From Welwitschia mirabilis (lineage: Eukaryota), in assembly GCA_051453625.1 (NCBI GenBank), contig JBOZIK010000001.1, positions 19,633,337 to 19,670,121 of the forward strand: a stretch of 36,785 nt of DNA. Direction: 5' to 3'. The notes beneath the pieces are model-generated. The model was not told the origin of the DNA. It made no database searches and saw nothing but the letters and a program-made list of their open reading frames with translations. The position numbers and the translations under genes are program-made. Below, piece after piece: positions 1 to 24,824 of the stretch (positions are counted from its first letter, which is position 1; each line of letters begins with the position of its first letter).

Positions 1-74
1 TTAAGCTAATTTATCATAATGCATACATTAATTTAATTTATTTAATCACAAAAATAGGTATTCAACTATTTTAG

Positions 75-388
75 TTTTTCTTTTTTGGAAAAAAGTATGT
101 GTATTAGACTAGGAAATGTACATCAAGGGGCAAAATCACCCAAGCGTATAGAAGCATAGAACCATTCATAATAGTGAGAATAATAGACTAAAAAGGGGGG
201 ACGAAACCACCGCTCAAAAAAATAACATAACAAGCAGTTGCATAAGAGGGTGCAAGTACTAATGAAAATAGTCATACAAAAGGATTAAAGACTACTAAAA
301 ATAGGGATAAAACTACTCCTAAAAACCAGAATTTATAAAGAACTTAGAATACTAGAAAAAAGCCAAAAAGTAAGAGGATATCAGTCCT
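75..388 (-). other. LINE 3'UTR and degenerate poly(A) tail
   Basis: T-rich tract on the minus strand after the TAG at 391-389, ending in AAAAAAGAAAAA (plus strand tttttctttttt, 75-86). Confidence 0.65.
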
Positions 389-454
389 CTACAGACCACT
401 GCAATAAGGGAACATGTTATGATGGTTGTGCTTAAGTAAGAATCTATCCAAGTC

Positions 455-612
455 ATTTAAGAACACCTCAAAAGCTTGATTGATTTGATTGAATTCTTTA
501 ACACTAGCTGGGTTCTTATCTGGATGAAGGATATATCTTTCTTCCTATAAGCTAATTTTATTATCTAGGGAAGAGCTTGATGAGAGAGACCCAGGGTGAT
601 GAATAGGCATCT
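455..612 (-). pseudogene. DnaJ J-domain remnant at the C-terminus of LINE ORF2
   Basis: Reads TLGLSHQALP*IIKLAYRKKDI(-1 nt)LHPDKNPASVKEFNQINQAFEVFL, with HPD at 526-518. Matches the J-domain pattern LG(L/V)..A....IK.AYRK.....HPDKN.....F..IN.A(Y/F)EVL with correct spacing once the single deleted base is restored. Confidence 0.85.
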
Positions 613-1084
613 TTTCAACCCATGCAAAGTTGCTAGAAGAACCTCTCTTCTAGTTGTATTCATGTCAATATCCTGAGTTTGGGGTTGGAGTTCCAAAGAA
701 GAGGATTTAGAGGTAGAGCTTTATGAGATACTAGGATCTAAAGCTTGAGGGGGAGAGTACTAGCATTCTTGAGCAGGGTCAGTTGGTAAGGAATGGCCTA
801 AAGCTAAAAAAGGATGAGGTGGAAACTAAGCTTAAGTTAGGCTAGGAGGATGCTCCTTGAGAGAAAGCTGTTGGACTGAGGACGAAGATGGACCTGCTGA
901 GTTAGCTGGGAATGAAGACACCCTCCTATTGTTAGCACTGGAAGGAGTTGTTATTTCTTCTAGGATAGGATTCCGAGCTGAGGAGGATCTTCTAAAAGAA
1001 TTTCTCCTAGGATTGTTTTGGTAAGGATAATGAGGGGAAGGATGAGAAGAGGCCTCTCTATTCTAAGCTTCTTAAGCTACTCTT

Positions 1085-1627
1085 CAAAGAGAAAGTACTA
1101 GGCATGAGTACCTAGAGGAGTCCTTTCACTTGAGGACTTGAATGAAGAAGTAGGGAATGTTTACTTGGCATCCTAAGTCAAGAGCCTTAACAAACATAAA
1201 ATGAATTCTAAAAAGCTTAGAACAATTATCAGATTGAATGAAATATTTATCCACAAGTTCTACCCCAAGTCCCCATAGGGGCGGTAAAACCTTCCTACTG
1301 ATATGCCCACTAGGTAGCTTAGGGATTCAACCTAGGAAAAAAAAGAACTTTTCATTAGCCTCTGCTTCTAAATGAGATCCTCTTGCCTTCTGCTGGGACC
1401 TTCAATAGTCTAGTAAAAGATTCTTCTGAAATTTCTATCGAGATTCTTCTAAAGGTTGTTCTTCCTCCTCTTCATCGCTTGTAAAATGGGGTAATATCGG
1501 CCACCATATCCCTTCTTAGTTTGTGTAGAATGGTTTCCCATCCCATATCCTATATTTTCTCCCACAACTTTGGGCACCCTTCAAAGAGGCCTAGGTCAGC
1601 AGGTTCATATGTTGGAGTGGCTTTCAT
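1085..1627 (-). pseudogene. Accessory domain in LINE ORF2 resembling the plant-retrotransposon extra-ORF family (Transposase_32/ATHILA-ORF1/PMD-like)
   Basis: MKATPTYEPADLGLFEGCPKLWEKI*DMGWETIL...ITPFYKR*RGG...IEISEESFTRLLKVPAEG..(frameshift)..GHISRKVLPPLW..VDKYF...HFMFV...VNIPYFFIQVL. In frame with the zf-RVT tail. Family assignment rests on recalled motif pattern only. Confidence 0.55.
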
Positions 1628-4600
1628 GATAAGTTTAATTTGAGAGTGATTGCGAATTATCTTTTTGGCTGTATAAATAGGGAAGGGAAGGGGGGCGTTA
1701 TTGAAAATTAAACTATTTTTTATCCTCCATATTTGCCATAAAGTCAAGTAAATCCCATCAAATGAATGCATGTCAGAGGCGCTACTACTTTGATAGTACT
1801 TAGTTATTAATACCATTAATTCCTTACTGCAGATGCATTAATGAAAGAGATGCTGAATTATTTCTATAGTGGACTAACATATGGAACATTTGATATCAAC
1901 TTGAATTTCCATTTTTAATAATTAGTCTCTTGTCAAGATTCAATCCTGCTCTTTCAGCCAGCAAAAAACTCTAATTTTCTCTAGTATTTGATCCCTCTAA
2001 TGCTTTTTATAGTCTTCCTATTTGCCATATTTCTTGATTAGGATTTGTTTGAACGTTTTATTCTGAGAAATGTTCAAATTAAAAAGTTGTTGGTTAGCTT
2101 TGAAGAGGTGCTTCTAAAGATAAGACACTCCATGTTTAATTGTCCAGTTTTTGTACTTATGATTCATTAAGTTACTTTAAGATTGCCCTCCATCTTGTAA
2201 TCTCTTTAAAATATTTTGAGCTACTATGAGAATACAAGCTTTAGGTTTTTATATTCTCCATCTTCTGATTCTTTAAGATGGGCTATGATTTTCCATTTAC
2301 ATAAATGTATTTTGTGGTGATCTTTTCCCCCAACCATATGAAGTCTTTTAAAATTCTATCACTTTTTTGAATGATATTCTTTGAGGGATGATAACAGAAG
2401 ATATATACCAAAAATATAAAATTAGATAGGAATTTGTAAGAATGATCTTAGCCTTTGAAGATAGAAAATTATTGTGCCAAAAACTACACCTCCTTTGTAT
2501 AGATTCTAGAATGTAGTTCCAAGTATTTGTCTTGTGCCAATTCCATAAAGAAATGCCTAGGTAGATGTCATGTAGGTATCCTAACTTTGCATTTAGAATA
2601 TGGGTGATTTCATCCCCTCTGATACATTATCTGCCTAAGCTATATATTCTTGATTTGTTTTAATTGATGTAAAGCCCTGTTGCCTCTGCAAATGTGTTCA
2701 TGGCATTTTTTATAGCTTTTGCTTATTAACTGGTTACCTTGGTTATGATAATAGTATCGTCTGCATAGTGGTTGTTGAGAAAAATTTGGCCTCTAATTTT
2801 GATTTCTATAATTCCATTATTTTTTAAGAAAATCTGTAAAACATTTATTACAAATAAGAAGAGGTATGGAGATAGAGGATCCCCTTGTCTTAAGCCTCTT
2901 CCTACTGAGAAGAAGTTTGATATGTGACTATTAACCTCCAAACTAAATTCAACTGAAGCCTAAATGTCTAGCTATAGGTTAATAATATCTTGAGAGAAGC
3001 TAATTTTTTTGAGAATGCACCCTAAATCTTGCCAACTAACTGAGTCATAAGCTTTTATAATATCTAGTTTAGCAATGAGAAGCAGAAATTGGTGCTTTTT
3101 AATGGAGTGAATAATTTCATGGGTCAAAAGGATTTGGTCTTGGATATACTTGGAATGGATGAAGATATCTTGGTTCTTTAAAATCACATTGGGGAATAAG
3201 GGGGCAATTCAACCAACCATAATTTTTGTGAAGATTTTGTAAATAACATTATAGACCCCTAAGGGTCTAAAGTTCTTTGGCCTACTGGCATCCCTTTTTT
3301 TGGTATGAGAACTACTCTAGTTCTTTTTATCTCTCTAGGAATCTATTATTTATGGAAAATTTCCTGCATTACATCATGGAGGTTATCTCCTAAGATAGAA
3401 AAATAAGTTTTGAAGAGCTTGATTAGCCACCCATCTGACCGATGTGCTTAGTTTTTCTTTATCAATCTGACTATAACTAGGATCTCCTCTCTACTTAAGG
3501 GTTTACTCAATACTTGATTATTCTCCTCCAAAACCTTCTTGTTCTCTGGAATTAAGTCAGGGGTGATATCGTCCCATTCCCAGACTTTCTGAAAATGGGT
3601 CTGTAGTTCCTTTGCTATTTCTTCTTCATTTTTTATAACTCGACCTCCTATTATAAGCCTGTTAATTCTATTATCTAATTTATGTTGGTTAGCCTGCTAG
3701 AAGAAAAATATAGTATGTCTATCACTTTCTTTAAGCCATTTGATCCTTGATCATTCTCTCTAATAATTTTCTTCATCCTCATGTATTTCTTGGAGCTCCA
3801 TTAGGCGCTGGTATTCTCTATTTCTAAGGATGTCCTGATTACCTCTCTTTTCCTATTCAGTTTGAATGTGTTTGAGGTCCTTAATTTTAGATTTTGAGTC
3901 AAACCACTCCTTATCTTTCTTTCTCAAGTATCTCATGTGAGCCTTCAAGGTATTGAGGCCTTTATATAAGAAAGTGACAGGTTGTTTACCATCATACTAT
4001 GCCTAGATATTTTCCAAGAGAATTTTAGTTTTTATTCAATTGATCTAGCATTGTTCCATCCAAAATGGGGTTTTTGGGGGTGAAAACACCCCCACTCTAA
4101 GCATAATAGGATGGTGATCTGAGGCAATCCTATTTAGACTATGATCTTTAAGAGGAAGTTTAGTTAGATGTTTCCTAGACATCACTTTATCAATCTTAGA
4201 CATTATTAGCTCTGTACTTATTCTTCTATTTAACCATGTGTATTTGCAACCATTGATTGGTATATCTGTGAGAGAATATCTTATAAAGAAATCTTTGAAA
4301 ATAGAGGCCACTTTAAAGTTTCAATTATCTCACCTAGATTTTTTCTAGTGATGGAGGCATTGATTAAAGTTGCCTAAAATTATCCATTTGAATTTATCCA
4401 CTACATTCTTTTGAGCTTCTTCCAAAACCATAGCCTTGTCTAAGTTATGTTGGCAACTATATATGTTTGTAATAATCCATCCTTCATTCTTAAGGAAAAT
4501 CATAATGTGATTCTAACTGCTAAAAATAAGATCTACATCCTTTTTAGTAGAAACCAAAAGACCACTAGATTTACCCTAGGCTAGTATAGTAAAAGAGGTC

Positions 4601-4785
4601 CAGTGCTATCCCATCTTTATGTTTCCCATATCTTGTTTTAGCTTCATCTCCTAAAGGCAGACTAAATCAATATTATATTAAGTAATTAGATTTTATAGGA
4701 TCTTTTTTTCATAAGAGGATCCTAATCCCATACAATTCTATGAGAGACAATTCATTAGAGGGTATTTTTGCCCCTTTCTAGGTGC

Positions 4786-6437
4786 TTATCCTTTTTTTAA
4801 TATGTCTTCAATTATAGCTTGGAAACTATTCGCAACATTCTCTGCTATCTCTCACCTCAATAAGGTTTTATTGCTAGGCCTTTCCTTTGTCTGAGTTTTT
4901 ACTTTATTAGATTCATCATCTTGAAGGTTTAGTTGGGTATCATTCTCATTCATGAGTGATTGAAATGGGTTTTTTTATTTTGAATCATTCCTTTTTCTTG
5001 ATTTTCTTTGGAAAAATGGTGGTACTTTTTCCAATTTATTCCTTTTGCTGTTTATGCCTACACACACTCTGATTATGCTCAGTCTTTTTGCAAAAGGTGC
5101 AAGTTTCCTTTTTCTTTCCTTTAATGTCTATCAATCTCTTTTGCCATTCTTCTCGTAGGTGATCCAATCTTTCATAGTGTGAGCATTTCTTCTTAGGAGA
5201 AGCACATCTTCCCCACAGGTATCCTAATTTTCCACAAGTTGAGCATGGGATCGAAAGATTCTCATATGTAACTTCTAGATCATAGGTTTTCCATTTGGAT
5301 CTAAACTTGATAGATTAGATTTTCTTTACATCTTTGAGACTCATCCACACACAAAATTTGGCTAACACTAGTCTAGTTTGTTTAATCGTGATTCAATCTA
5401 GCTTATTTAGATCTCCAAACTGATCAATCATTCTTCTTAATAGATCTTCATCCCAAAACTCCAAGGGTAACTTGTGGATGTGGATCTAGATTGGAAGTTT
5501 CTTAGACAATTGCAGGTCTGATTACACCCACAGTGTCCATTTGACTAGGGCTAGGCTTCTAACTCTAAAAAACCATGGTCCTCTTGCTATGATTTCATCC
5601 TGATCTTGTTCATTATCTAGCTAGAATAAAACTAGTCCTTCTAGGATTGTTATANNNNNNNNNNNNNNNNNNNNNNNNNNNNNNNNNNNNNNNNNNNNNN
5701 NNNNNNNNNNNNNNNNNNNNNNNNNNNNNNNNNNNNNNNNNNNNNNNNNNNNNNCTGACATTTTTCTCGTAGGTAACCCAATCTTCCACATTGTGAGCAT
5801 TTCTTCTCCGAAGGAGAACATCTTCCTGAGAGGTATCCTGATTTCTCAAAAGTTGAGCATGGGATTGAAAGATTCTCATATGTGACTTCTAAGTCATAGG
5901 TTCTCCATTTGGATCTAAACTTTATAGATTAGATTTCATTAGTGTCTTCGAGACTCATCCACACACAAAATCTAGCTAACACTAATTTGGTTTATTTAAT
6001 TATGATGCAATCCAGCTTGATTAGATCTCTAAACTAATTGGTCATTCTTCATAATAGATCTTCATCCCAAAACTTCAAGGGAAACTTTTAGATGTGGATC
6101 TAGATCGAAAGTTTCTTAAACAAATGTGGGTCTGATTGTATCCCCGGAGTCCATTTGGCTAGGGCTAGGCCTCTTACTATGATTTCATCCCGATATTGTC
6201 AATGTCTACCTAAAATAAAACCAGCCCTTTTAGCATTGCTATAACATTGACTTTGCTAATCCCTGTCCATTTTATTGTGACCCAATCATGGATCTAATCC
6301 AGTTGAGATCAAGAGCCAGAAGAGACAAGCTTGCTAATGAGGCTAAACTTAATTTTTTTCTCAATTTCATTGCACGCATCTTCATCTATGTCTAATATGA
6401 GAGATTTCCCCTCCCTAGAGAACTGAATCTTCTCCAT
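4786..6437 (-). pseudogene. LINE ORF1 (DUF4283-like with three CX2CX4HX4C knuckles), partly duplicated across a gap
   Basis: Starts at ATG 6437 (MEKIQFSREGKSLILDIDE...SLISKL), followed by GPWF, LPI*IHIHKLPLEFWDE and YENL. Knuckles lie at 5060-5245. The C-terminus is RPSNK..., with a probable stop TAA at 4788-4786. Confidence 0.85.
5141..6243. repeat. Diverged direct duplication of about 0.5 kb of ORF1 (5141-5654 and 5755-6243) flanking gap 5655-5754
   Basis: Collinear alignment with many substitutions; the right copy has an approximately 24-nt deletion that removes the GPW motif. Confidence 0.9.
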
Positions 6438-8512
6438 CTTGGGGCTAACCCCAATAGAAAACCCTAAAAAAACTGATCAAAATTGCAAAACAGAAGGACT
6501 CTTGAAACTTACCTAACTACTTCCTATTCTGTGGTTGAAAATGCCCCCTTGCACTATGATCAGGGACTAAAACCATTCCCACTGAACCGTGATCTCCAAA
6601 ACCTGCACCCTCCTCCTGATCTGCGATCTTCAGAGCTTTACCCTAGGTGGAATCTTGGATATACTAAATAATTCATTTTTTATTATTATGTTAATAGAGT
6701 TTGATTTTTTTTCTTTTAACTGACTTATGAACATCTTTTAAGACATTCATTTTATGCTACTTGATTTAATCTTATCTTTGAATTTATTTCCATTCATTCA
6801 TTTATAGCTTATCACTTTCTTGTTAATGATACATGTCTTCTTGATAAAGTATGATGAAATTTTAGTAATTTTTATAGGACTTATAACTTAATATAATACA
6901 TGTACAGGAACTTTAGATGTTTCTTGGTAGATGATTGAATCATCATGAGGATTCTTAAATTTCAATTATTTTAATACTTTTTCTCAATCCTTAATGATGA
7001 TGAAATAAATGTAATCACTTCCAATGATATTATGCTAGAGTGAGGATGAAGCTAAGAGATTTCAAAGAAAATAAAATTATTTTATATTCATATTTTGATC
7101 ATTCTATGATAACTATAACCCTTACTGATGAATTAAATCACTTGAAGTTATCCCATTGATAATCTAGCACTATTTCTACTAATGATTCTAATGATTGTGA
7201 ACCTAAAGAATGAGATTTATATACATCCAAAAAACATTTGAGTATTTGTATTAATGCTTTATAAATTTGATACCTTAGTAGAGTTATAAAAGATTATTTA
7301 TCTTAGCTAGTATTATTTTCAATAACATGTTGATCTTTTGATAGTGTTAAAATTAATGTATTTTATGTTAAAAACTATTAATTCCTTAACTAATCAAGTG
7401 ATTTAAACCTCATCAGGTACTTGTCAATCTCTTAATGCTTTCTAGGCTTACTTTATTTCATCACTTTTATTTTTATCTTTGGGAGGATTGTTAAACCCTT
7501 ATTAATTTGATATTAATCTTCGAAAACATTTAAAACACATAGTAAGTACAAGAGTGAGATGCTTGTCCTAAGGCTAAAAAATGTAATGGCACTTAATAAA
7601 TAAATAAATAATAAAAAAAGAGTCCTATGAATAGAAAAATCATTATTATAACTAAAGATATTATTTTTTAAAGTAACAAAACAACTTTAGGCATCCTTTT
7701 ATTGCATTGTCCTCAAGCGGTATAAAATCATTCTGATAGTTTATATTATGTAATGGCTAACATGCATGTCTAAGTAAAAATATATGATGTGGAATAATCA
7801 AATTCTAAAGAGGAATTTATGAAATTAAGCAAGAAAAATTTAAGTAAGAGAGTAGCTAGAGGAGATAATTAGCCTTCAATTAAATTTTTGTTATTTGAGT
7901 GTGAATCTAGAAAGTAATACTCTACAAAATAGTAGCATATTAAATCTAGAAAAGTAAAATTACTAATTGTTTGAAAAAGTATGATTAGATTGGTATTTTT
8001 ATATTGCATGAAAGATGTAGGGTTTAAAACACTTTAAAGGAATAAATGTTATCTTAGAAGATTTGATAGATAGTAAGCATAATATGCTTCTAGTTTAGAT
8101 GAAATCCTTAAAATGGTATACAAACCTATGCTATAATTTTTTTAAGACATAAAAAAATCAGTGAGGAAATGCTAGAAACTATCTTAATNNNNNNNNNNNN
8201 NNNNNNNNNNNNNNNNNNNNNNNNNNNNNNNNNNNNNNNNNNNNNNNNNNNNNNNNNNNNNNNNNNNNNNNNNNNNNNNNNNNNNNNNNNNNNNGAAATA
8301 GTTTTTAGATGATTTATGTTTTGGACATTACTTATGATATAAATTAATGGTATGCCATAATATATTACAATATTTCTTAATGCATACATCTTCTAAAGAA
8401 TTTGGTAATTTTTATTTTTTTAATAATTGTAATGATAATAATAACTATCTTCTTTTCATTATATTGTGTTGAACATGAACTACATTAGAGATATAGAAAA
8501 TAAAGCATATAA

Positions 8513-9630: not shown

Positions 9631-11299
9631 CCTAGTCACATGAAATAATAAATTAAATTTTGAATTCACTTATAACTTTAAATAATAAAAGCTCGATAAG
9701 AGAAATAATAGGCGTGAGTAGTAGATAAAATAATTTTACATACTAAATATTCCATAATCATTATACTCTTTTTATATTCCTATTTATCCATTTTGAAAGA
9801 TAATTTACTAACAACGATCTCATAGATTCTTAGAAATATCTTAAAAAGAAAAGAAAATTCTAAGAAATTTAGTTACACCATCATCTAAAATAATTTTCCA
9901 TGATGCAGAGAGAAATCATGTATAATTTTGGTAAGATTAAATACTAAATACTTTTCCAAATTAATATTTGAACTAAAAAGAAAATAATAAAGAGTAATAC
10001 TATAGAGAAATTGATTAAGTATATATTGAGGATTTTTATTTATCTATTTATTTATTTATTTTTTAATTTGCAGTCATCCAGAACATTCATCTTGATAAGC
10101 ATCTTTAGATTTTCACTAATGTGAATACCAAAAATAGTCCAAGATCAATTACCATAATGATAAATACTTGAATAGACTAAACATGAAGTCCTAAGTTCAA
10201 ATATCTACATTGGTAGGGGCATATAATTTGCATGGCTCCATGTGCCACTAGGAAGTTATATGACACATACCTACCTAGCTAGGTTACCCTCTAAAAATAT
10301 ATGAATATCATAAATAATATTATCCTAATCATCCTTTCACATAACATGACATAAAAATCTACTACAATGATAAAAAGATATGAAGCTAAATGACATTCTT
10401 TCCTTACAGACCTTTTAATATGAAAGGTAAAAATAAAATTTTGGGTGATGGAAATATAAGCATTTTATTCTTCAAATTTAAAAATCTATCATATGAATGA
10501 AATCCTTTCAAAATCCTAGCTTTTTAATGAAAACTAAGATAAAATTCCATAAGAATATATTACAATCTACTATAGAATTAGGTTTATAGAAGGTAATATC
10601 TTAATTAGTATTTATTTCTCATACTAAATATTTCTAAGTAGAAATAACATTGTTAAAATTATACTTATGTTTAATAAAACCACTTTTTTAAATACACATA
10701 ATACAAGGTAGGATAATCTCCAACATATAACCTAAATGTTTAGATAAAATTTTATAAGAAACATTAATTAAAGTAATTAATCTCTTATTGGAAATAGAAT
10801 TTAGATCATCTAATTTTTATGAAACATGGATAGTATCCTAATTTAGCTTTATAACCAAGATACCTTTATGTGAGGCTTCCTTAAGAACCCTAAGATAGTC
10901 TTTTCCACTAATATCATAATGGTTTTTATAAAATTATATGAAAAAATTCATTCATCTTTAAAGCCTTACAATTATCCATTTCAAAGAGCTCTTCTTTTAC
11001 CTCATCTTTATAATAACGTTCTCTAAAATTTAATGATAGACCTCTAAAATTTTAAAGAAATGATGTTAGAATTTTGGTTAAAGAGATCCTAACATAAATT
11101 ATCTAATTAAAAATTTATTAAGATTTTTAACCAAGTATTGGATAATGAATTATGGATCAAAGTATACACTACCATTAATTTAAGTTTATCTAATTGATAA
11201 GAATAAAAATTCTCTTAAGAAACTTAAAAAATTATTTATAATTGATGTTTTAAATGTTAAGCTAAGAAAAATTTTCTCTTAATACTAGTGCTTTTAATA

Positions 11300-22230: not shown

Positions 22231-23712
22231 AAGTTCTGTGGAAATAGTATTCAAATAGTTCGCAAAATAGTTTCTAATGTGGAAATTTGATAAATAATTC
22301 TTCTATCAATTCATGTAGATGATTGTAAACACTTCAAAGATGCATTTAAGTACTAAAAATCATCATTCTTTTGAGATCTTTTAACAATTGAGGAATATTT
22401 CTCTCTCTTTAATAAAATTTCACAATAATTCTTCAAATGTAAAAATCCTTTCCTTGAAGCTTTAAAGATTGTTAATCTCTAATCAAGTTCCTCAAATATA
22501 ACTCAAATTATGTCCTATTCATTGAAAAAGCTTCCAGTGCATTATCTTTTATAAAAATGAGTGTATTTGATGATCAAAGAAATCTAAAATTGAAGAATGA
22601 ATCATGATCAAGCTTACAACCTTAAAGATATTGAAGAATCTATAGTGAAGTAAGCATGAGTCTCTTAATCAAAATTGAGGCACAAGTGAAGCAACAAAAA
22701 ATTGAGTCTTCGATCCAATAGTATTTCATTCATCTTTTCCAAGAGGTATCAGTCCTTTTTTCACCCATGCATGTACAACCTTTTATAATTGGAGTGGATA
22801 GCATTCCATTCCACCTAATCAATGTGGGATGACTCTCTTTGCTTTTTCTTAAAACATGTTTTCCTATAACCTATGTTGGCATTATACAAGAATAAAACCT
22901 ATTTAACTAATTGAAACAAAGGCACACATTAATCAAAACAACAAATACAAAGCAATGATGGTCACATTAGACCACATATTATGACATTTAACTCAAAAAT
23001 TTCTATTAACTCTAGAGAGAACTAAGGATTTCTATTGAGTTTAACCATAATTCTTAACATGTAAGTCATGAAAATCATCATGCCCTTCACAAATAGTGGT
23101 ATACAAAGATCTTGTGATTATGAAAAATGTCTAATGGTTCTTGAATTAAGAAATAAATTAAGATAATAAATTTGACATGATCACATCTTCATTATCAAGA
23201 TGACATTATATAGTTTCCATCGACCATTACCTAACATTATAAAATATGCAACTTATTAGTCTTTAATGTTAGTTATCTACCATCTTGCGCTTCAAGGATA
23301 ATATTTTGCTTCTCATTCTTTTCTTCTTCCATGTGTTTTGTTTTCTCAATGGAATGAATACATTAAACATGATGCAACTCCCAAGATATAACACATTAGT
23401 GACCCACCAACACTCTAATATTAAACATGCATTTTATTCTCCTTTGAAATGTTTGACTTGAAAACACTAGTTCTTTCCTCTTTTAATGTAGTAATCTAAG
23501 TAATCTTGTTTGTTTGATTTTTGGGCTAATACCCAAGTTGTACAACTTTAAACACTAAATAATGAAGTCCTTTTAAATATTCTAAAAGTGATTATGAGCA
23601 AGATCATCGGTCATAATTAAAGACAACGTATTTCTCACAGCACAAAGAAACACATTCATTTGTTTTAGAGACTTCTTTGACTCCAATTTGTTGTGATGAC
23701 CAAGACATATTC

Positions 23713-23760
23713 TCAGTAGACTGGAAGTGGCCCCCCTGCCAACAAAATGTTGTGCTCCAT
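23713..23760 (-). CDS. AHP: AHP exon 6
   Basis: atgcag|ATG; MEHNILLAGGPLPVY then TGA; matches the LEQQI.AAGG.IP-type AHP C-terminus. Confidence 0.9.
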   Translation of the reverse strand: MEHNILLAGGPLPVY

Positions 23761-24824
23761 CTGCATGCATTAATAAACACAGAAAAACCTGCAAATCAAT
23801 AGATACCAAATGAAACCCACAAATATGAAAAAGAAAACATCTAATCCATCTAACATGAAGCAACTCTTGCAGTTTGCTCTTCAACACGAAGTACTCATTC
23901 TTCAGCTGTTGCAGACACTCCAGGCAACTGTTCACATGCAGATGAACAAGCCACTGCTTTTAATTATTTGGTTCAGCGATTGCAGAAGGAAATAGGACAT
24001 AAACGTTATACTGCAATTGCAGTAAACGAAAAATAGAATTTTGAGATGACACGCAAGTACCCAGAACGGTTTCTGTGATCACAGAAGATCCGGAAAGCAA
24101 TGCAGACGTTCTTTACTCTCTGGGCTCCTATGCTGTTCGATTCATTTATTCTCGTTAGTTGCTCTTCAAAGTAAAAAAACAGCCACCCAGAAGCTTATTC
24201 ATTCTTATTAATAGTCTAAACAAGCTACCAAACATGACTATTTTAAACGATGTATGGAACTGAAACTGGTACTGAGTTTACAGTATGAAGCTGGAGTGAA
24301 AGACTTTTGAGGATATATTGCGCAGAAGAAATGACACTGAAGAAGAATGTACACCTGGAACTGCTTCCTGTAAACTGATGGAGATGCACGTCCATCCTCT
24401 TGTAATCCACATCTTCTTTGTCTCTGAACATAATCACCACAAGCACAGACGTAATTTGCAAGAATTGAATTAGATACAGAAAGGAAAACAGTCTAGAGAG
24501 GCATCAGACATACAGAAGAGTGGCCATGTTGCAGAGAAGTTTCTCAGAATCACGAAAGAAAAGGGATAAAACTTCCAAAATGAAATCAGGATCTGAATCA
24601 TCTCGCAGTTGCTGAAGCTGATTAAAATGGTCGTCAAGAAATCCCTGCAACACCATACCCAGAGACCCAATAAGCAGTAACCCACCAAGAATTCAACCAT
24701 GACTCATGCACCAAAACCAGTTCAAGAAAAAGAAAAGCAAATTGCAGACCTGCTGGAAAAGAGAGCTAATGAATTGGAGAAGCCGCTTCTGCAACGTTAG
24801 GACTTCTCCGCTGCAGCACATCAT
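23713..24824 (-). CDS. AHP: Histidine-containing phosphotransfer protein (HPt/AHP family), 6 exons, 155 aa
   Basis: join(24824-24750, 24644-24514, 24423-24355, 24132-24061, 23927-23855, 23760-23713) = 468 nt, all introns GT-AG. Protein: MMCCSGEVLTLQKRLLQFISSLFQQGFLDDHFNQLQQLRDDSDPDFILEVLSLFFRDSEKLLCNMATLLDKEDVDYKRMDVHLHQFTGSSSSIGAQRVKNVCIAFRIFCDHRNRSGCLECLQQLKNEYFVLKSKLQELLHMEHNILLAGGPLPVY. Internal exons of 131/69/72/73 nt fit the plant AHP gene structure. Confidence 0.96.
23855..23927 (-). CDS. AHP: AHP exon 5
   Basis: aacag|T; CLECLQQLKNEYFVLKSKLQELLH; donor CAT|gttaga. Confidence 0.95.
24061..24132 (-). CDS. AHP: AHP exon 4
   Basis: aacag|C; IGAQRVKNVCIAFRIFCDHRNRS; donor GG|gtactt. Confidence 0.96.
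24355..24423 (-). CDS. AHP: AHP exon 3 (phospho-His motif)
   Basis: ttcag|A; DKEDVDYKRMDVHLHQFTGSSS; donor AG|gtgtac. Confidence 0.96.
24514..24644 (-). CDS. AHP: AHP exon 2
   Basis: ttgcag|GGA; GFLDDHFNQLQQL...SEKLL; donor CT|gtatgt. Confidence 0.96.
24750..24824 (-). CDS. AHP: AHP exon 1
   Basis: gccATGATG start; MMCCSG...SLFQQ; donor CAG|gtctgc. Confidence 0.9.

Follow-up and report, generated by a model that had tools for sequence, protein, structure and literature searches.

The first ~6.9 kb of a 36,785-nucleotide stretch of Welwitschia mirabilis DNA (contig JBOZIK010000001.1, positions 19,633,337 to 19,670,121; hereafter the window, with coordinates counted from its first letter) hold a plant-type LINE (long interspersed nuclear element) of the L1 kind on the minus strand, as read from open reading frames (ORFs), Pfam and blast matches. 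Past the zinc-binding domain zf-RVT, the ORF2 frame of this decayed copy leads into ~390 codons without RNase H, and the domain order is endonuclease, reverse transcriptase (RT), zf-RVT, an accessory domain, a Ser/Pro-rich linker and a J-domain. We favour the reading that in this LINE family the ORF2 frame itself extends past zf-RVT, without RNase H, into a Transposase_32-like domain, the linker and a C-terminal J-domain, and we consider this reading probable. Features described below lie on the minus strand unless stated otherwise.

The ORF2 frame up to and past zf-RVT

On sequence grounds the LINE is assigned to the plant L1 clade. The N-terminal part of ORF2 (3184–4851), placed by Pfam and tblastn, contains an AP (apurinic/apyrimidinic)-type endonuclease and the start of the RT, interrupted by in-frame stops. 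Its endonuclease remnant (4333–4851) is a decayed piece that matches Exo_endo_phos just under the Pfam cut-off (E 3e-5, 24.3 bits against 24.5), and plant L1 ORF2s align by tblastn over 4755–3295, the endonuclease part covering 4755–3583. The RT and thumb region follow at 1943–3208, after a change of frame near 3184–3208, with an RVT_1 match well above the cut-off (E 5.7e-21, 75.6 bits against 29.6). Among 5.8 billion proteins the RT piece has 253 matches, the best of them plant L1 ORF2s with ~30–32% identity. C-terminal to the RT, and directly after an in-frame TGA at 1940–1942, zf-RVT (PF13966; 1820–1939) is matched with E 6.8e-7 and 30.3 bits against a cut-off of 27.5.

The next segment (1601–1819), delimited by blastp against L1 homologues, comprises LWQIWRIKNSLIF at 1741–1703, the usual L1 segment after zf-RVT, and a linker. 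Among L1 relatives, those lacking RNase H end ~41 residues past this motif, whereas RNase H-bearing ones continue for ~190–207 residues. In the window, no Pfam family of any kind, RNase H among them, was matched in any of the six frames of 1085–1816 at E ≤ 1, RNase H was not matched by the separate pieces at E ≤ 10 either, and the plus strand of 1085–1816 yielded nothing. A first-pass annotation of this DNA, made from the letters alone, had described an L1 ORF2 continuing into a region other than RNase H, and the RVT_1 and zf-RVT matches together with the six-frame result bear this out.

The accessory domain lies in two frames

After the L1 segment comes a domain of ~165 codons that is spread over two frames. 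Its first half (1355–1627) is in the ORF2 frame and opens at ATG 1627, where MKATPTYEPADL starts in the frame of LWQIWRIKNSLIF with no stop between the two. The segment FYKR ends at 1475, IEISEES..LLKVPAEG follows in the same frame, and the half closes at TAA 1355–1357 and TGA 1352–1354; TAG 1550–1552 and TGA 1472–1474 fall inside it. The peptides quoted in the first-pass annotation all exist, although the minus strand went unmentioned there. Its statement that the frame runs on without a stop is accurate from LWQIWRIKNSLIF to MKATPTYEPADL but not beyond, where the same four stop codons stand in frame.

The first half was delimited by a homologue, P0123, a 91-aa ORF from a Welwitschia mirabilis transcript, which shows 75% identity (E 4.4e-38) and is the sole match of 1355–1702 in a phmmer search of 1.84 billion representatives. 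Given this homologue, the first half is judged to be more than a chance reading frame. P0123 has Gln at the position of TAG 1550–1552 and Trp at that of TGA 1472–1474, so both stops arose by decay of the window copy. In word-index searches of longer proteins, a 155-aa piece of zf-RVT plus tail gave no match at E ≤ 0.01, and P0123 gave none at E ≤ 10. It had also been proposed that ATG 1627 might start a separate ORF3. P0123 does begin at the Met matching ATG 1627, which fits that idea. Two observations count against it: no stop interrupts the ORF2 frame between zf-RVT and this codon, and a weak resemblance to L1 extends past the codon as far as ~1601 (blastp).

Direct reading places a break zone at 1327–1354, with TGA 1352–1354 in the ORF2 frame, a run of eight T at 1339–1346, TGA 1327–1329 in the next frame and a +1 frame change. 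The second half of the domain (ISRKVLPPLW..VNIPYF) occupies a 66-codon stop-free frame at 1129–1326 in the ORF list, shifted +1 by one base; the shift lies between 1355 and 1326, beside the T run, in agreement with the frameshift first suspected near 1320–1380. This frame has no stop in its 66 codons, against ten and three in the other two frames.

Linker and J-domain

Translation and composition define a Ser/Pro-rich linker at 640–1128, in the frame of 1129–1326 and with TGA codons at 1126–1128 and 1084–1086. It comprises ~160 residues (S 20%, P 12%) and is probably disordered.

A J-domain follows at 437–612, identified through Pfam and PDB, with helix II (..LGLS..IKLAYRK..), the HPD motif at 523–515, helix III (..FNQINQAFEV..) and a 1-nt deletion at ~531/532. 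Its first half (to 541) is in the frame of the linker and of 1129–1326, and its second half (..YILHPDKNP..) is one base off. With the domain split by this frameshift, the C-terminal half alone matches Pfam DnaJ (PF00226) below the cut-off of 27.8 bits (E 6.2e-5, 23.5 bits), the N-terminal half scored alone gave no Pfam match, and solved J-domains in the PDB match from E 3.5e-4 (dnj-12, DNAJA1, Sis1). By our reading, the spacing from helix II to HPD is canonical after a 1-nt gap is allowed. Contigs of other copies from two DNA runs, X1 and X5, carry one extra base behind 531 (three in X1, with 14.3 of 74.3 depth, and one in X5), which, as we read it, would put both halves in a single frame. Judged from these features, the downstream J-domain already noticed in the first-pass annotation appears to be real and canonical, HPD included.

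The module within a repeated element

Contigs of X1 and X5 and reads of two RNA runs were aligned on 1–5600 at ≥80% likeness. Every bin of this interval is highly repeated, since 35,184 contigs of X1 and 28,984 of X5 align to it. The summed contig depth in X1, which is not a copy number, was 5249–8044 over the RT (bins 2432–3179), 1218–2353 around zf-RVT (1684–2431) and 1123–1359 over the first half of the tail (1310–1683). It reached 4118, the highest value of the tail, over the second half (1123–1309), fell to 404–476 over the linker (749–1122), rose to 1863–2395 over the J-domain (375–748) and was 430 after it (188–374) and 3941 at the start of the window (1–187). The second half and the J-domain are thus within the range of the canonical ORF2 bins (1218–8044), and the linker lies ~5–10 times below its flanking bins. 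High depth over domains and low depth over the linker would be the pattern expected from constraint in active lineages.

Among the contigs listed, other copies bridge 479–722, 612–972, 943–1223 and 1420–1693; in one contig 1641 is linked to 1691 and the 49 letters between them are replaced by 15. No well-supported cluster of loose ends was found between 750 and 3100 in the X1 and X5 contigs. The first-pass annotation had named long terminal repeat (LTR) or target-site duplication (TSD) boundaries as the mark of an unrelated insertion; no LTR, TSD, inverted repeat or A-run was found at 1600–1700, 1330 or 1128. These observations favour the view that the accessory domain, linker and J-domain form a module of the repeated element rather than a chance neighbour, and that this module likely belongs to this LINE family.

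None of 308 and none of 142 RNA reads was ≥99% alike to the window and most were <90% alike (two runs, about a quarter of each read), so the window copy was not seen as RNA in these runs; related copies have thin RNA coverage. In addition, reads of both RNA runs pile up on ~40 bases of the RT core (2858–2900), with well-agreeing loose ends on both sides (21–58 reads), as expected of an expressed transcript elsewhere that shares just a short RT motif.

Family likeness of the accessory domain

The affinity of the accessory domain was explored with the ESM Atlas feature search, which reports language-model likeness. The nearest named clusters of P0123 are Transposase_32 (PF20167; 0.89) and ATHILA ORF-1 (PF03078; 0.88), and seven of its ten best family-bearing matches agree with one another. 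For 1129–1326, PF20167 accounts for 25 of 30 named matches (best 0.90), ATHILA ORF-1 appears too, and the recognition value of 2246 is slightly below the tool's mark of 2300. Two non-overlapping halves in different frames therefore share PF20167 as their nearest named Atlas family. We treat a Transposase_32/ATHILA-ORF1-like domain as a lead and not as family membership: the proposal of the first-pass annotation stands as far as the nearest named family of both halves is concerned, but not at the level of Pfam hidden Markov models (HMMs).

The plant mobile domain (PMD; PF10536), also invoked there, gave no HMM match at E ≤ 10 and does not appear among the Atlas neighbours displayed; the first half contains a pattern, W..TF...I..E....LL..P..G, that may be PMD-like. 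Sequence searches of the PDB gave two chance-level matches for P0123 (E 0.32 and 1.2) and none for 1129–1326. A low-confidence AlphaFold2 model of P0123 is helical; its few strand marks are single, isolated residues, and none extends to three residues or more.

Weighing the alternatives

Several observations weigh against an ORF2 frame that extends through the whole module. No intact copy was seen, the contig depths are not counts of copies, and just one contig (depth 3.9), among 16 listed of 64,395 pieces, visibly bridges the undoubted L1 part (above 1700) and the tail. P0123 stops exactly ahead of TGA 1352–1354 of the window; because of this, that stop and the frame change may predate the window copy, and in the source lineage translation of ORF2 may not have included the second half and the J-domain. 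Neither the first half nor the linker has a frame that stands out by its stop count (8, 13 and 9 in the linker). At the family level, the HMMs of PF20167, PF03078, Transposase_28 (PF04195) and PF10536 gave no match at E ≤ 10 on P0123, 1355–1702, 1129–1326 or 1087–1419, and the Atlas scores of 0.88–0.90 fall within the tool's 'lead only' range. The AlphaFold2 model of P0123, predicted alone and without an alignment, has a pLDDT (predicted local distance difference test) of 44.6, too poor for fold comparison. Finally, among 120 listed of the 253 L1 ORF2 relatives, the precomputed Pfam column contains neither DnaJ nor PF20167 nor PMD.

The alternative that best survives these data is that the distal part is a passenger. 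An L1 master copy would have run past its own end or changed templates, gaining fragments of an LTR-element extra ORF and of a J-domain gene that the family would then have kept as non-coding 3' sequence, and the shared frame would reflect a lost stop. L1 elements do perform 3' transduction, the end of P0123 just ahead of TGA 1352–1354 implies that the break between the halves may be common to diverged copies, and in neither the first half nor the linker do the stop counts point to one frame. Against this, the depth of the second half and J-domain is as high as that of canonical ORF2 bins, with the linker and 188–374 5–10 times lower. The second half, the linker and the N-terminal half of the J-domain share one frame, the base needed to join the J-domain halves is present in other copies, and the 66-codon frame at 1129–1326 has stayed free of stops in a copy with 43 stops in ORF2. 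We regard passenger status of the distal part as a serious rival, albeit one that holds a minority of our confidence.

A chance neighbourhood is improbable. Here an unrelated element, such as an Athila- or Ogre-type fragment, or a host gene remnant would lie beside a truncated LINE at this locus alone, in an accidental frame. Frame sharing over ~25 codons has, by our estimate, a ~1-in-10 chance, and two papers describe Transposase_32, ATHILA ORF-1, Transposase_28 and PMD from the extra ORFs that Ty3/gypsy elements (Athila, Retand and Ogre) carry (PMC6317226, PMC11728184). However, LTR, TSD and poly(A) are all absent from the junction, and 1300–1800 contains no well-supported cluster of loose ends. 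LINEs are also rarely truncated at the 3' end. Contigs of other copies cover 1420–1693 and join 1641 to 1691, with similar depth on both sides, and the start of P0123 falls within sequence that retains a weak alignment to L1 linkers.

A strongly diverged version of RNase H, which usually forms the C-terminus of ORF2 in plant L1s, would fit the position of the accessory region and the ~190–207 residues by which RNase H-bearing homologues extend past the shared motif. It is nevertheless very unlikely: neither RNase H nor RVT_3 was matched in Pfam (six frames at E ≤ 1, pieces at E ≤ 10), the Atlas neighbours are Transposase_32 and ATHILA instead, and the low-confidence helical model has no strand of at least three residues.

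Decay of the window copy

The age of the copy, which the first-pass annotation overlooked, is evident from its stops. ORF2 (1475–4851) is interrupted by 43 stops in frame and shifts frame once, near 3200, the tail has at least four further in-frame stops, and the copy as a whole has at least three frameshifts; with these lesions it is non-functional. To place the stops, the window ORF2 was aligned to 60 plant L1s (P0003–P0062). Five of 21 in-frame TAG codons fall on Trp-dominated columns (41/41, 43/47, 35/41, 34/45 and 19/24), and three of six in-frame TGA codons on columns in which no residue is more frequent than Arg, among them TGA 1940–1942 before zf-RVT (14/46). Gln is commonest at just one of 37 TAA/TAG columns. 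Since TAG falls on Trp columns and TGA on Arg columns while Gln is not enriched, the in-frame stops are products of decay through TGG>TAG, CGA>TGA and similar transitions, and the copy is old, dead and marked by C>T/G>A change.

Base composition agrees with this picture. Observed/expected ratios are 0.15–0.18 for CpG and 0.50–0.57 for CAG, the whole window is strongly depleted in CpG and CAG/CTG, and GC content is 20–27% outside the LINE. Transitions make up 1354 of 1674 places (81%) at which copies differ in the X1 contigs. For the Welwitschia genome as a whole, one report gives 29% GC and long-term deamination of methylated transposable elements (PMC8275611).

A ciliate-type code (TAA/TAG = Gln), under which ORF2 and the tail would form a nearly intact gene, is suggested by the long frames that table 6 opens (for example 422 codons over the RT) and by flanks of 20–27% GC, but TAG on invariant Trp columns, TGA on Arg columns and the lack of Gln enrichment rule it out, and the strong CpG and CAG depletion, a tail homologue from a seed-plant transcriptome and ORF1 and ORF2 of plant L1 type leave it virtually no probability. 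In practice, dead genes rich in TAA and TAG in deamination-decayed genomes can mimic a ciliate code. Elsewhere in the window, a GC island (0.33–0.40, 23–25.5 kb) contains a minus-strand, TGA-free frame of 412 codons with 15 TAA/TAG at 23195–24433; it has no Pfam match and is possibly another deamination-decayed element.

Other features of the element and the window

ORF1 of the LINE (4988–5653) consists of DUF4283 (5396–5653; E 5.8e-14, 52.3 bits, over the Pfam cut-off) and a CCHC zinc knuckle (4988–5392) matched by zf-CCHC_4 under the cut-off (E 0.0033, 17.5 bits). A second, partial ORF1-like copy with a DUF4283-like part and a CCHC part lies at 5755–6198, upstream of a 100-N gap, as found by tblastn with the window's own ORF1 pieces (62–73% amino acid identity). 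The 3' parts of ORF1 stand in tandem (5142–5654 against 5756–6243; 80% DNA and 62–73% protein identity) on either side of this gap (5655–5754), an arrangement that could stem from tandem duplication of ORF1, from one LINE copy stacked on another or from an artefact of scaffolding across the gap.

Comparison of the window with itself detected no second copy of the tail; what it did reveal was the repeated ORF1 and one old fragment of RT. That fragment, at 10625–10933 on the minus strand, is a much older LINE RT piece with 26% identity to the plant L1 ORF2s P0014 and P0035 (tblastn, E 8e-6 to 2e-7).

The 3' stretch of the LINE (1–436), by direct reading, comprises a short C-terminal tail, with TAG 386–388 as the first stop after the J-domain, and then a presumed 3' untranslated region. 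A T-run at 76–90 is possibly what remains of a poly(A) tail, and the window could start within the element. Repeat scans of 1–7200 found no TSD for the LINE and the short T-run 76–90 as the sole poly(A) candidate; tandem-repeat, repeat and Rfam scans of the same interval found no boundary repeats and no RNA family. One X5 contig joins the first 85 bases of the window to 5314, within the ORF1 region, and places 12 other letters between the two. It could be an internally deleted relative, in which case 1–85 would be in the element, or a chance AT-rich alignment.

Comparison with known systems

The known part of this architecture is the plant L1. Plant L1 relatives combine an ORF1 of DUF4283 and zf-CCHC_4 with an ORF2 of endonuclease, RT and zf-RVT, with or without an RVT_3 RNase H, and Vitis ORF2s (P0003–P0007) and the RNase H-bearing P0035 share the order of the window LINE through zf-RVT and the LW.IW..N..IF segment. 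Those relatives end no more than ~41 residues on or carry RNase H, whereas the window LINE adds ~390 codons. What would be new is the tail of Transposase_32-like domain and J-domain, seen here just as a dead copy. A separate case among the matches of the RT piece is P0091, an L1-type ORF2 with endonuclease and RT that has an Hsp70 match (PF00012, E 3.5e-25) over its final 87 residues. This protein probably stems from a chimeric gene model, but it is a curious find next to a LINE with a J-domain.

The extra ORFs of Ty3/gypsy elements, the nearest named families by Atlas, resemble the accessory domain of the window LINE in being accessory proteins carried by a retroelement. They differ in that the window carrier is non-LTR, with a domain of ~165 residues that lies in the frame of ORF2 and not in an ORF of its own, is followed by a J-domain and has no HMM match. 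A 3' extra ORF of sunflower Athila is reported to match Transposase_32 (PMC11728184).

With J-domain co-chaperones (DnaJ/Hsp40) the window J-domain shares HPD, the helix II and III patterns and the canonical spacing, but it stands at the C-terminus of a retrotransposon frame, without a glycine/phenylalanine (G/F) region or client-binding domains. C-terminal J-domains are found in auxilin, and viral ones in the T antigens of polyomaviruses. Among LINEs, the lepidopteran TRAS elements are reported to have a viral-type helicase domain in ORF2 that is preserved in many families (PMC5563155). They resemble the window LINE in an ORF2 with an additional foreign domain kept within the family, and differ in the domain, the host, its position and in that no intact copy of the window family was seen. 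In the literature searched, partly by title and with the supplements of the Welwitschia genome paper, which may list LINE families, outside its scope, no description of a J-domain or PMD-type domain in a LINE was found.

Possible function and significance

If the ORF2 frame does extend through the module, the module would be translated as the C-terminus of the ORF2 protein or as a closely coupled ORF. J-domains act by switching on Hsp70 through HPD and, because this is their one known activity, recruitment of Hsp70 is the simplest mechanism to propose. Through HPD, the J-domain would draw Hsp70 of the host to the ribonucleoprotein of the LINE, or to the partner of the accessory domain, and there assist in folding, in assembly or in the remodelling of bound host factors, and the Transposase_32-like domain could supply binding specificity. 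A counter-silencing module swapped between retroelement classes, as put forward in the first-pass annotation, would be compatible with this mechanism and is a candidate role. We know of no biochemical role in transposons for domains of the Transposase_32/ATHILA-ORF1/PMD kind; MAIN and MAIL1, host relatives of this kind of domain, act in silencing. A more specific scenario, which we offer tentatively and hold to be possible though doubtful, is that an abundant gnetophyte L1 lineage swapped its RNase H for two domains translated within the ORF2 protein: one of the Transposase_32/PMD type, which the extra ORFs of LTR elements either donated or have in common with it, and a C-terminal J-domain. 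The two would bring Hsp70 to the LINE particle or to a host silencing factor bound by the accessory domain.

Plant L1s carry an archaeal-type RNase H, itself an example of domain gain in a LINE ORF2. Such gains are rare and informative, as the TRAS helicase and the plant L1 RNase H illustrate. If the more specific scenario is true, the element would be the first J-domain-bearing retrotransposon and would carry the first accessory domain of the Transposase_32/PMD kind in a non-LTR element. The occurrence of such a domain in a second class of retroelements, together with a chaperone recruiter, would narrow the hypotheses on its role, and a J-domain in a retrotransposon frame would provide a directly testable idea of how an element uses or disarms the machinery of its host.

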